Positions 1 to 2,583 of a stretch of 64,000 nucleotides of DNA are shown here, piece by piece. Each line of letters starts with the position of its first letter. The stretch's first letter is position 1. The DNA is from an uncultured Staphylococcaceae bacterium. GTDB taxonomy: Bacteria; Bacillota_I; Bacilli_A; ML615J-28; CAG-313. The position numbers were made by a program, and so were the translations under genes. Below the pieces are notes generated by a model. It worked only from the letters and a program-made list of their open reading frames with translations, was not told the origin of the DNA and searched no databases. The DNA lies in assembly GCA_964409955.1 (NCBI GenBank), contig CAYPEY010000001.1, forward strand, positions 738 to 64,737, in the 5' to 3' direction.

Positions 1-537
1 AACATTACCTTGTTCATCATATTCAACTGATACTTGAGTTTTACCATCAGGTCTTAATTCCTTATGAGATCCATTCTTTCTGATTTCAGCAAGTCTTCTT
101 GCAAGTTTATGAGATAACATGATTGGAAGTGGCATTAATTCTTCTGTTTCAGTACAAGCATAACCAAACATCATACCTTGGTCTCCAGCACCATCAGTAT
201 CTACACCCATCGCGATATCTGGAGATTGTTCTTTTAAAGATACAAGAACTGCTAAATTTTCAGAATCAAAACCAAACTTACCACGATTATATCCAATTTC
301 ATCAACAACTTCTCTTGCTAATTTTTGAACATCGCAATAACCATTAGTTGTAATTTCTCCCATTACAAGTACAAGCCCTGTAGTAACACAAACTTCACAT
401 GCAACACGAGAATTAGGATCTTGTGCTAATATATCATCTAAAATCGCATCGCTAATTTGGTCACAAATTTTATCAGGATGACCCTCAGTAACAGACTCAG
501 ATGTAAAAATTCTTCTTTCTAAATTTAAATCTTTCAT
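1..537 (-). CDS. metK: S-adenosylmethionine synthetase, partial (C-terminal part lies outside the window)
   Basis: Manual translation of the minus strand from ATG at 537 gives [30 protein letters not shown]..., and further on [14 protein letters not shown]. These are hallmark MetK motifs. The frame stays open to position 1. Confidence 0.9.
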
Positions 538-1322: not shown

Positions 1323-1759
1323 ATGTGAGTAAGCGTCTACTGTTGCCCCTCACAGAACCGTACGTGCCCAATTAAGGCATACGGCTCTTCATTACACTCT
1401 TTAAACTATTCATTACTAAATAACTCTTATTTCTCATCGCACATTTTCCATCTATCTAATACCTCTAGTGTATTTAATGTTTAGTTCAGAGAAACGCTTG
1501 TTATGTTCTTCCCTTTCCTCCACTATCATTACTACCTTCATTGGTACTATGGAAGAAGTCGACTTCTTAATATCCTTTTCTATTCCTTAGTTTACAAGAC
1601 CTTGTAAATAGATTACTACTTTCGTAGAGATATTAAGACCTCCTAGGTATGTATATATTGTCAATGTAAAGCTCGCCAAGGACTCGATACCAGATGACTT
1701 GCTAGGTCTTTCTAGGTTGGATTCACACCAACTACATTATATGCACCGAACTGGCGCAC
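1323..1759 (-). ncRNA. ORF-less group II intron-like RNA (about 0.44 kb)
   Basis: The minus strand begins GTGCGCC at 1759. A domain V-like hairpin GAGCCGTATGCC/TTAATT/GGGCACGTACGGTTC lies at 1355-1387. A domain VI-like helix with one bulged A lies at 1325-1353 and ends ...CTCACAT at 1323. The stretch is GC-enriched relative to its flanks and has no ORF. The boundaries are less certain than the D5/D6 call. Confidence 0.7.
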
Positions 1760-1923
1760 CCTCAAGCAAATTATATCATATTTCATTTAATAAAAGACAT
1801 TATTTGCTATATTGTTTATTTTGATTACTTTATAATTATTTCCTATTTTTAAAATATCAAATTATTTGAATAAAATAGCGAATTATGATATAATTAAAAA
1901 AGAATAAGAAAGGGGTGCTACCT

Positions 1924-2583
1924 ATGGCAGAATCAAACAATAACAATATTCCTGCTACACAAGAAACACCAATAGTAGAAAACATTGAAGAAACAGAAAT
2001 TTTAGAAAATGAAGGTCAAGTTGATCCACTTACAATTTTCGAAAACAAACCAACTAAAAAACTTTCAAAATCTGAAAGAAAAAAAATGAGAGTACTTAAA
2101 AAATTATTTGCTGGAGAAATTAATGGAACTGAAGCAGCAAAAAAACTTGGTATTACAACTAGACAAGTTCGTAACTTAAAACGTCAAATTCTTAACGAAG
2201 GTCTTGATGGATTAGCTCATAAGAACAAGAATTATAAACCTTATAATACTTATGATGAAGAAATTAGTACTTTTGTTTGTAAACTTTATAGACGTGAATA
2301 TAGAGGTACTAACTTTAGTGAATTTGCTCGTATTTGTCAAGAACAATATGGTATCGAAGCATCTCGTAGTACAATTTATAATTTCTTAAGACGTGGAAGA
2401 ATTCGTTCACCACAAAGAAAAACTAAAAAGAAAAAGATTGTAGCTGTAGTAGAAACTCCTAGCACTACACCTACTAAAAAAACTACTACTAAGAAACCTG
2501 CAACAAAAAAATCTACAACAACGAAAACTACAACTAAAAAATCTACAACAACGAAAACTACAACTAAAAAAGAAACTAAATAA
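1924..2583 (+). CDS. HTH protein resembling a transposase N-terminal DNA-binding region, with a Thr/Lys-rich repetitive tail
   Basis: AGAAAGGGG lies upstream of the ATG at 1924. The segment GTEAAKKLGITTRQVRNLKRQ...SRSTIYNFLRRG looks like tandem HTH motifs of IS-type transposase N-termini, but no catalytic domain follows. The C-terminus is KKTTTKKPATKKSTTTKTTTKK... Confidence 0.6.
   Translation: MAESNNNNIPATQETPIVENIEETEILENEGQVDPLTIFENKPTKKLSKSERKKMRVLKKLFAGEINGTEAAKKLGITTRQVRNLKRQILNEGLDGLAHKNKNYKPYNTYDEEISTFVCKLYRREYRGTNFSEFARICQEQYGIEASRSTIYNFLRRGRIRSPQRKTKKKKIVAVVETPSTTPTKKTTTKKPATKKSTTTKTTTKKSTTTKTTTKKETK
2511..2570 (+). repeat. Perfect 30-nt tandem duplication inside the CDS (encodes KSTTTKTTTK twice)
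   Basis: 2511-2540 and 2541-2570 are identical: atctacaacaacgaaaactacaactaaaaa. Confidence 0.9.

Follow-up and report, generated by a model that had tools for sequence, protein, structure and literature searches.

Upstream of the gene for an RluA-family pseudouridine synthase in an uncultured Staphylococcaceae bacterium lies an element (minus strand, 1759–1323) that an initial annotation took for a compact, ORF-less class C group II intron of 437 nt, dependent on a maturase supplied in trans, with the hedge that it could be a decayed copy. The locus raises the question of whether it holds a minimal, working ribozyme or what is left of a larger one. We analysed the whole 64,000-nt stretch of contig that contains it (the window), the source genome (a 1.81-Mb MAG of 69 contigs, 95.8% complete) and related genomes. 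We consider it probable that 1759–1260 is what remains of a mobile group II intron, now immobile and almost certainly unable to splice; the hedge was the correct branch.

Identity and extent of the element

The Rfam domain V/VI model RF00029 matches positions 1389–1323 of the minus strand with 43.1 bits (gathering score 40; E = 3.9e-5 across the whole 64-kb window, 5.2e-7 locally) and is the sole Rfam family above threshold within the window. The covariance-model search proposed with the initial annotation thus upholds the group II identity. The GTGCGCC at 1759 is present as described, and its GUGCG (1759–1755) agrees with the 5′ consensus GUGYG; nor is there a minus-strand ORF of at least 40 amino acids inside 1323–1759. 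The reported GC enrichment stands against the intergenic flanks, where 0.235–0.265 rises modestly to 0.32–0.365, but the stretch is no richer in GC than the adjacent coding DNA. The fold of the whole element is not exceptionally stable (z = −1.6; 6 of 100 shuffles fold equally well). The hairpin at 1387–1355 is an intact, canonical domain V with the AGC triad and the 2-nt bulge; it conforms to the 34-nt domain V hairpin of group II introns, and its columns in the RF00029 alignment have posterior probabilities near 1. It is identical to domain V of the copies in genome G037, and the copies in G096 differ from it solely in the terminal loop. The element is collinear with full-length relatives that encode a protein with RVT_1 and GIIM domains.

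The 3′ end is not where it had been placed. Helix 1353–1325, with the bulged A1330 and the ...CAT end at 1323, is what RF00029 aligns, but similarity among independent copies continues 63 nt beyond 1323, to C1260, and then stops abruptly. All 23 independent 3′ junctions that we collected from relatives outside the window end ...GTCTACTCGAC (longer views: ...CUACUCGAC, ...GUCUACUCGAC and ...GTTGTCTACTCGAC), after which the sequences diverge; the exceptions are one that ends CGAT and the divergent full-length copy of G038, which has CTTG for GTTG. The window copy reads ...CTACGCGAC, its final base being C1260. In nine genomes of the same genus the orthologous site is empty, with the layout TGnTATAAT-N8-12-AGG/N5-8-ATG (the slash marks the junction), for example aaaatgatataat-aaaaaagg/tgataat-ATG, and the 500 nt are missing from it, domain VI arm included. 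When the window flanks are joined they give tgatataat-ttgcttgagg/taaaattt-ATG, which matches the layout of the empty sites. Since the homology of the copies ends at 1260 and the empty sites lack the 500 nt, the true inserted unit is 1759–1260 (minus strand), 500 nt long and not 437. It is a genuine, ORF-less group II intron RNA.

The 94 nt from 1353 to 1260 appear to form an expanded domain VI, as judged from the 23 junctions, the basal helix of the relatives, compensatory changes and folds. In its basal helix, GUGAGGGGCAAC (1353–1342) pairs with GUUGUCU[A]CGCGAC (1273–1260). The strand aligned by RF00029, GCUUACUCACAU at 1333–1323 with the bulged A1330, is probably a pseudo 3′ strand: in folds of the intact copies GCUUACUC pairs with the purine-rich GGAGAAGC as an inner domain VI helix. 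AAAGGAG (1295–1289), which is conserved in all copies, is the purine-rich 3′ strand of this inner helix in the minimum-energy structures and a Shine–Dalgarno look-alike. Alignments and folds place a local hairpin, GCGUAGACAAUAAGUUGUCUACGC (1286–1263), as the alternative to the basal helix. AAAGGAG and the perfect hairpin had been correctly positioned, as had the ATG at 1251, but had been assigned to the host leader; because the unit ends at 1260, both belong to domain VI of the intron. The leader annotation changes accordingly, with an apparent ribosome-binding site and hairpin turning out to be intron RNA.

Comparison with other introns points to the distal strand as the authentic 3′ strand of domain VI. 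Introns of Peribacillus and S. meliloti and a neighbouring IIC element all end ...[A]CUCGAC, and in these the CUCGAC strand pairs with GUGAGGG... through 4 bp, a bulged A and 3–6 bp. In the family of the window copy the same 3′ strand sits distally and pairs with the same 5′ strand through 4 bp, a bulged A and 7 bp. The distal pairing has compensatory support, its top pair, otherwise C-G, being G-C in G038:C8 and U·G in G076:C16; at least one pair of the inner helix switches from G-C to A-U between sublineages, and the upper part of the proximal helix is not kept in G038:C8 or G076:C16. The long domain VI hairpin is the minimum-energy structure in the intact copies G096:C98, G037:C42 and G038:C8. 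For copy L060, in which the look-alike strand is mutated, the Rfam model itself places domain VI at the distal end (381–510, 46 bits). Two bulged adenosines are therefore candidates for the branch site, the proximal A1330 of the Rfam alignment and the distal A1266, which is common to the relatives and lies 7 nt from C1260, in keeping with the 7–8 nt between branch adenosine and 3′ end in group II introns; the distal helix of the window copy has one A·G mismatch. On these alignments A1266 is the likelier branch adenosine, so that the helix at 1353–1325 survives as an alignment but not as the intron end and probably not as the branch site. More generally, an enlarged domain VI that includes a look-alike strand can lead standard domain V/VI models to put both the 3′ end and the branch site in the wrong place.

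A real 3′ splice site far downstream of the predicted one, with ∼ 60–70 nt past the model domain VI, is also known from the B.c.I4-type ‘domain VII’ introns of the Bacillus cereus group (PMC1865049; PMC2691827; PMC3261151). Those are class B introns with RT-X-En proteins of ∼ 620 aa, and their extension consists of stem-loops S1 and S2 plus an 11-nt tetraloop receptor (PMC2691827; PMC3261151). No CCUAAG...UAUGG (CCTAAG or TATGG) was found in 1353–1260, and the protein of the present lineage has no En domain. Homology to the B.c.I4 domain VII was rejected on the absence of the receptor motif and of En. The extra 3′ RNA fits an insertion within domain VI better than a ‘domain VII’, because its distal strand appears homologous to the domain VI 3′ strand of the relatives.

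Class of the parent lineage

Genomes of the same order carry this intron family, often in many copies that break the assemblies. The full-length intron G038:C8 has a GTGCG 5′ end, a ribozyme of ∼ 510 nt, a 423-aa protein with RVT_1 and GIIM, and domains V and VI. G037:C9 and G037:C42 resemble it, and domain I of these introns matches the Rfam model RF02005 at 109–127 bits. The reverse transcriptases (RTs) of the relatives (395–423 aa) consist of RVT_1 and GIIM only, with no endonuclease domain, and are 48–49% identical to RTs of plasmid introns from Peribacillus, Mesobacillus and Cytobacillus and 40% identical to rhizobial ones. An RF02005-type domain I is likewise common to the intron of S. 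meliloti plasmid pHRC017 (145 bits) and the Peribacillus plasmid introns (149–151 bits), the introns L191/L192 (Peribacillus) and L193 (S. meliloti) spanning 145–151 bits. These share with the window's family the ...[A]CUCGAC 3′ end and an RT of ∼ 420 aa without D/En, and differ in domain VI, which is 79–95 nt long in the window's family against 34 nt in S. meliloti and 55–56 nt in Peribacillus, and in the insertion niche. The same order also has true IIC introns (L044, L045), which lie behind terminators and fit RF02001. Since domain I of the relatives is of RF02005 type and that of the IIC introns of RF02001 type, the element is not class C, as had been proposed.

Endonuclease-less, IIB-like introns (class D RmInt1, class E and related varieties) form the comparison group (Toro & Martinez-Abarca 2013, PMC3552965; PMC4615759). 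The relatives combine, as class D does, the lack of D/En with an IIB-type RNA, and their RF02005-type domain I is that of the rhizobial plasmid intron; the class D C-terminal motif LX3AX3PXLF[V/A]HW (PMC4615759) gave no regex match in the RTs of L021 and L191–L193. Solved IIA, IIB and IIC intron proteins score alike against the RT of the lineage. By sequence comparison, then, the lineage is endonuclease-less, IIB-like, of RF02005 type and not class C, and lacks the class D motif. DNA searches gave only two 45-nt domain V matches, on Clostridium plasmids, in the plasmid collection, and no match in the phage collection.

Among known systems, the RmInt1-related remnant FRE652 of Sinorhizobium (PMC4181065) resembles the window copy in being an endonuclease-less, IIB-type intron that has decayed intergenically beside a gene that still works; a cognate protein is neither present nor required. 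RmInt1-type decay is described as removing the 3′ terminus (PMC4181065), whereas in the window copy both ends and domains V and VI survive and the interior is missing, namely the RT gene and the core of domain I. The specialized IIB1 lineage of Michel et al. 2007, as reviewed in PMC12584367, takes up a stereotyped position relative to translation signals, as does the window's family; its sites are the start and stop codons of housekeeping genes or positions adjoining them. Its introns have an insertion of 300–700 nt near the 5′ end of domain I and an En domain; the window's family has neither and is tied to a −10 box and a start codon.

HYERs are ORF-less, DNA-cutting ribozymes derived from IIC introns, reportedly described by Liu et al. 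(2024, Science). Class C introns and HYERs are likewise small ORF-less group II RNAs of Firmicutes-type genomes, some of them multi-copy with no visible protein gene. They differ in having an RF02001 domain I in place of RF02005, and the window's family does not lie behind terminators. Unlike a HYER, the window copy is single, is not IIC and has had its recognition loop deleted. ORF-less group II RNAs that are multi-copy with no visible protein gene also occur in G026 and G024.

Internal deletions and the probable loss of splicing

The 5′ part of the element (1759–1678) comprises GUGCG and the beginning of domain I, i.e. the IA and IB hairpins and the first IC1 bases; it is 79–94% identical to the 5′ ends of the relatives and covers about positions 1–47 of the RF02005 model. 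Positions 1677–1642 align with the closing strands I(ii) and I(i) at the 3′ side of domain I, helices that we assign by analogy with other group II introns. The window copy has CCUAGG at 1647–1642 where the relatives have CCUGGG, so that a G of the presumed domain I closing helix has become A. Domains II and III, with J2/3 as CAUAGUA at 1551–1545, and the 5′ part of domain IV follow at 1641–1452, named by the same analogy; the region is collinear with, and 71–84% identical to, the intact relatives.

Between positions 1678 and 1677 the alignment with G037:C9, G026:C64 and G038:C8 reveals the junction of a clean deletion of ∼ 194 nt, from IC to ID and including the EBS1 loop, at a GG..GAG microhomology. 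RF02005 is the only domain I model that responds in the window under permissive settings, and it scores 16.4 bits (threshold 49) against 109–127 bits in the intact relatives. The gap takes away nearly all of the RF02005 region; the foldable domain I by which the initial annotation was to be judged is therefore incomplete. The element is short because these 194 nt are missing, and the argument from the ∼ 0.4-kb size of an ORF-deleted class C intron falls with that. The deleted block holds the hairpin loop CUCCUCAA (G037) or GUCCUCAA (G038). In L021 and L023, both intact relatives, the first ID hairpin has a CCUCAA loop, an exact complement of the UUGAGG that ends the upstream exon at two independent sites, the window and G038; 4–5 bp can form with the flank of G037 itself. 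The loop has the position and the behaviour of EBS1, an identification based on complementarity and not on covariation. The EBS/IBS pairing that had been called for can thus be recognized in the relatives, but the loop is deleted in the window copy. A metagenome scan with an 18-mer across the deletion junction returned 115 matches, all due to chance (18–24 nt, on high-GC contigs).

The RT gene, 1.2 kb in the relatives, is cut to a 28-nt stub at 1451–1424: aligned with the ORF starts of G037:C9 and G038:C8 (MENERKDIR), the window reads ATG GAA AAT GTG CGA TGA..., with the ATG at 1451 and a stop at codon 6, followed by the ORF-deletion junction. The ORF-less copy G026:C64 has the same junction and lies before a different gene, which argues that the ORF-less form arose once and then moved. 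G026:C64 is itself decayed, begins GUGCA instead of GUGCG and is without part of domain VI; copy L060 is reduced to 264 nt. Decay through internal deletion seems common in this intron family, as far as its sequences tell.

Apart from the stub, no RT/maturase is encoded in domain IV or elsewhere. The source genome (95.8% complete) gave no RVT_1 and no GIIM match, and tblastn with the cognate RT found nothing below E = 1, which leaves the suggested rescue by a maturase in trans without a candidate; a maturase could in any case not replace the lost EBS1 core. The further copies that had been anticipated were not found in this MAG either. The genome has only one domain V, the element is single-copy and lies 2 kb inside a 96-kb contig, and when the complete L021 and L023 ribozymes were compared with the whole genome by blastn, this locus alone matched and the deleted block had no counterpart elsewhere. 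A 44-nt match on contig C18 lies inside a coding sequence and was set aside as a chance match. MAGs often lose repeats, a caveat to which the absence of a second copy is subject; had a second copy shared more than about 140 nt with this one, the contig would probably have broken, as contigs of the relatives do.

Domain V docks on domain I, which serves as scaffold and also holds the 5′ exon (PMC2691827; PMC12584367). Identity, boundaries and deletions, as well as the absence of an RT and of a second copy, are direct observations. With neither a domain I core nor a maturase the RNA would be unable to splice, and the element is, judged by its anatomy, almost certainly an immobile relic.

Three other accounts of the same sequence would leave a ribozyme in place. 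A functional, compact ORF-less class C intron of 437 nt (1759–1323), served by a maturase in trans and controlling the downstream gene, would explain the RF00029 alignment of domains V and VI with its end at 1323 and the GUGCG at 1759, and ORF-less bacterial introns that depend on trans-acting proteins are known (PMC4424553). We regard this account as very improbable: domain I is not of IIC type, the insertion extends to 1260, EBS1 has gone together with the core of domain I, the genome contains no detectable RT/maturase and no terminator hairpin stands in front of the element. An artefact of assembly would be a different matter, with the real element ORF-less but otherwise a complete ribozyme. 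The MAG does consist of 69 contigs, and contigs of related genomes break at this very repeat family; yet the element is single-copy and well inside its contig, the junction falls at a short microhomology as in real deletions, other relatives carry different internal deletions (L060, G026:C64), and restoring the block would still leave no maturase. An artefact of this kind is accordingly most unlikely. The missing piece of domain I could, finally, be transcribed elsewhere and assemble in trans, as in the trans-spliced introns of organelles; such assembly of group II fragments is known from organelles and, by engineering, from bacteria (PMC3410883). With the blastn of both ribozymes matching this locus alone, we give a split ribozyme next to no credence.

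The attractive ‘minimal ribozyme’ turns out to be an ordinary dead retroelement in this genome. The element itself is of an ordinary kind, a decayed retroelement, and its parent lineage is an unusual variant.

The rluA-family leader and the insertion niche

Upstream of the relic, TATG-A-TATAAT (1780–1770) reads as a −16 TRTG motif with an extended −10 box (TATAAT, 1775–1770); the TGnTATAAT of the empty sites suggests that it is the host promoter. The box ends 10 nt upstream of the intron. The last six nucleotides of the upstream exon, TTGAGG (1765–1760), are complementary to the CCUCAA of L021 and L023 and correspond to ...AGG/TGAnnnnATG at empty sites, so that they appear to be both IBS1 and the native Shine–Dalgarno core of the gene. 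The downstream exon (1259–601) starts with the 8-nt spacer TAAAATTT, followed by the RluA-family gene, which is intact (ATG 1251–1249, 217 aa, PF00849 at 112 bits); the element's location in the leader of such a gene had been correctly recognized. Nine of the 10 other genomes in the genus have an orthologue (64–74% identity) whose N-terminus is the same. The insertion has left the native AGG/GAGG 500 nt upstream. Inside the relic no terminator was found on the minus strand, so that transcripts from the TGATATAAT promoter may plausibly read through.

Structure prediction for the window RNA leaves AAAGGAG unpaired, flanked by two hairpins; the 24-nt hairpin and then 11 nt separate it from the AUG. 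For intact copies the motif is predicted to be paired and thereby sequestered. The window fold suggests that AAAGGAG could act as a makeshift ribosome-binding site. Given an intact domain V, J2/3 and GUGCG next to an intact host gene, the arrangement could be tolerated or even used, and not inert.

Recruitment would be the further step: the ribozyme is dead, but its domain VI arm has become the working leader of the rluA-family gene. The substitution at 1264 (U to G) is central to this idea. Seen in no copy but that of the window, it perfects the local hairpin at the cost of an A-U pair in the basal helix of domain VI; the window RNA has a calculated energy of −26.0 kcal/mol with the local hairpin and of −18.3 kcal/mol with domain VI forced. 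G1264 would thereby lock the hairpin, free AAAGGAG, which is paired in domain VI of the intact copies, and bring it within ∼ 13 nt of the AUG. There is no other Shine–Dalgarno site within 20 nt of the AUG at 1251, and the gene, which is intact, is conserved in the genus. Against this, an effective spacing of ∼ 13 nt is long for a Shine–Dalgarno sequence, one substitution in one genome is indistinguishable from drift, and weak expression of the rluA-family gene, which is not essential in model bacteria, may simply be tolerated. We regard recruitment as rather unlikely; it would refine and not contradict the main explanation, that of a dead relic.

The history of that relic is probably as follows. 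The parent was an IIB-like mobile intron with an RF02005 domain I, an RT/maturase of ∼ 420 aa without endonuclease and a 94-nt domain VI. A copy derived from a form that was already without the RT gene retro-inserted into the short rluA-family leader, between TGATATAAT-N4-TTGAGG and TAAAATTT-ATG, and so separated the native ribosome-binding site from the start codon. Later it lost the 194 nt of domain I that include EBS1 and acquired the point change that weakens domain VI. Without EBS1, the domain I scaffold and a maturase, the RNA could neither define the 5′ splice site nor dock domain V. The relic would now be transcribed, presumably from the host promoter, as a plain 500-nt leader, and translation would start from the unspliced RNA, possibly aided by AAAGGAG and the hairpin.

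The position of the window copy recurs throughout the family. A search for the end motif that tolerated three mismatches found 19 independent 5′ junctions, all of which read GUGCG. In 18 of them a −10 box (TATAAT or TATACT) ends 9–16 nt (mostly 10–12) upstream of the intron; the TGn extension is present in 15 of these 18 boxes, often as TRTG. The upstream exon ends in RGG at every 5′ junction and the start codon ATG lies 7–13 nt downstream of the intron at nearly all junctions. IIC introns, by contrast, stand directly after a rho-independent terminator or attC hairpin, and the IIC controls of the same order do sit behind terminators. As background, only 12% of the genes with an SD-like RGG in the genome of the window have a box at that distance (6.7% in the TGn form). 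TATAAT was ruled out as IBS2, since it stands anywhere from 9 to 16 nt from the junction, a variability that argues against base pairing with the box.

Bacterial introns are known to limit the damage they do by inserting behind terminators, into other mobile DNA, or at start or stop codons. The full-text literature that we searched describes lineages specialized for terminators, attC sites and start/stop codons, and none behind −10 boxes was found there. A lineage that inserts 9–16 nt behind −10 boxes and 7–13 nt before start codons would add a new niche, and with it a way to test whether retroelement targeting is tied to the initiation of transcription. The pattern may reflect targeting of melted promoter DNA, or the survival only of insertions that are harmless and well transcribed. 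We speculate, with considerable reserve, that the relic is the fossil of an undescribed, specialized intron lineage from gut Bacilli whose targets are the regions where transcription starts. In open promoter complexes, or in those that have begun to transcribe, the non-template strand is exposed, and the RNP of this lineage would reverse-splice into it at about +3 to +6, directly downstream of an AGG that pairs with an anti-Shine–Dalgarno-like EBS1 (CCUC). The enlarged domain VI would be a two-state element whose purine-rich strand stands in as ribosome-binding site, fixed ‘on’ in the window by the 1264 change after the death of the ribozyme. An in-frame UUG start in the hairpin, or an intron-borne start fused to the host ORF, was considered as a general feature and dropped, since the frame agrees only sporadically. 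A standalone domain VI arm in front of genes was likewise considered and dropped, since most of the matches were contig ends and the sole internal one, G007:C7, precedes an ORF of 19 codons.

A fixed insertion niche upstream of start codons

The insertion position of the intron family is a fixed niche. At the 5′ junctions (L194–L210, L004 and L006), a TATAAT/TATACT box lies 9–16 nt upstream of the intron in 18 of the 19 copies and carries a TGn extension in 15; in the window's genome, the corresponding background rates are 12% for the box and 6.7% for its TGn form. RGG immediately precedes the insertions at these junctions, and at the 3′ junctions (L032–L060) an ATG follows 7–13 nt downstream of the intron in nearly all copies. 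The leader of the rluA-family gene, in which the relic resides, is very short across the genus: at the orthologous intron-free sites (L062–L070), only 15–23 nt separate the −10 box from the ATG. Given this spacing, the 'Shine-Dalgarno' AGG of the gene would be at, or a few bases from, the predicted 5′ end of the transcript.

Reduced and ORF-less copies in related genomes

A 264 nt mini-derivative of the same intron (L060, 246–510; JAZLLM010000090.1, G096:C90) has its 5′ 130 nt fused straight onto domains V and VI. Its genome contains at least 11 copies of the intron 5′ end, a count that may include further mini forms, because contigs stop ∼ 135 nt inside the repeat. Two genomes of the same family as the window's genome (G026 and G024) have several copies of the intron ends spread over different contigs (at least six copies in G026), and no cognate RT was found in either assembly. 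Either the ORF-less copies are maintained there unaided, or the interior portion that carries the RT dropped out of these metagenome-assembled genomes.

At L036 (G007:C7, contig ∼ 3843–3886), in the genus of the window, the isolated domain VI arm is the only remnant. It comprises AAAGGAG, the hairpin, whose base is a compensating GAG/CTC version, and CTACTCGAT, and is followed by a 19-codon ORF. Class C introns (RF02001 match) are also present in a relative, G079, at L044 (contig C65) and L045 (contig C25), both immediately preceded by rho-independent terminators. The L044 copy is ORF-less (∼ 675 nt). A further CTCTACTCGAT motif occurs 45 nt beyond the 3′ end of this copy and hints that here, too, a domain VI strand is duplicated.

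Surroundings of the relic

The downstream neighbour of the pseudouridine synthase gene encodes S-adenosylmethionine synthetase (N-terminal and central domains; 1–537, minus strand) and continues past the window edge. On the other side lies a divergent gene (1924–2583, plus strand) for a 219-residue protein that matches HTH_28, HTH_23 and HTH_29, with no catalytic domain among the matches. Its promoter-like site, TTGAAT-17-TGnTATAAT (1866–1894, plus strand), is ∼ 90 nt from the 5′ flank of the relic. Read on the plus strand, the relic's hairpin (1263–1286) followed by TTCTCCTTTC (1287–1296) scores as terminator-like, and could halt antisense transcription entering via the rluA-family gene.
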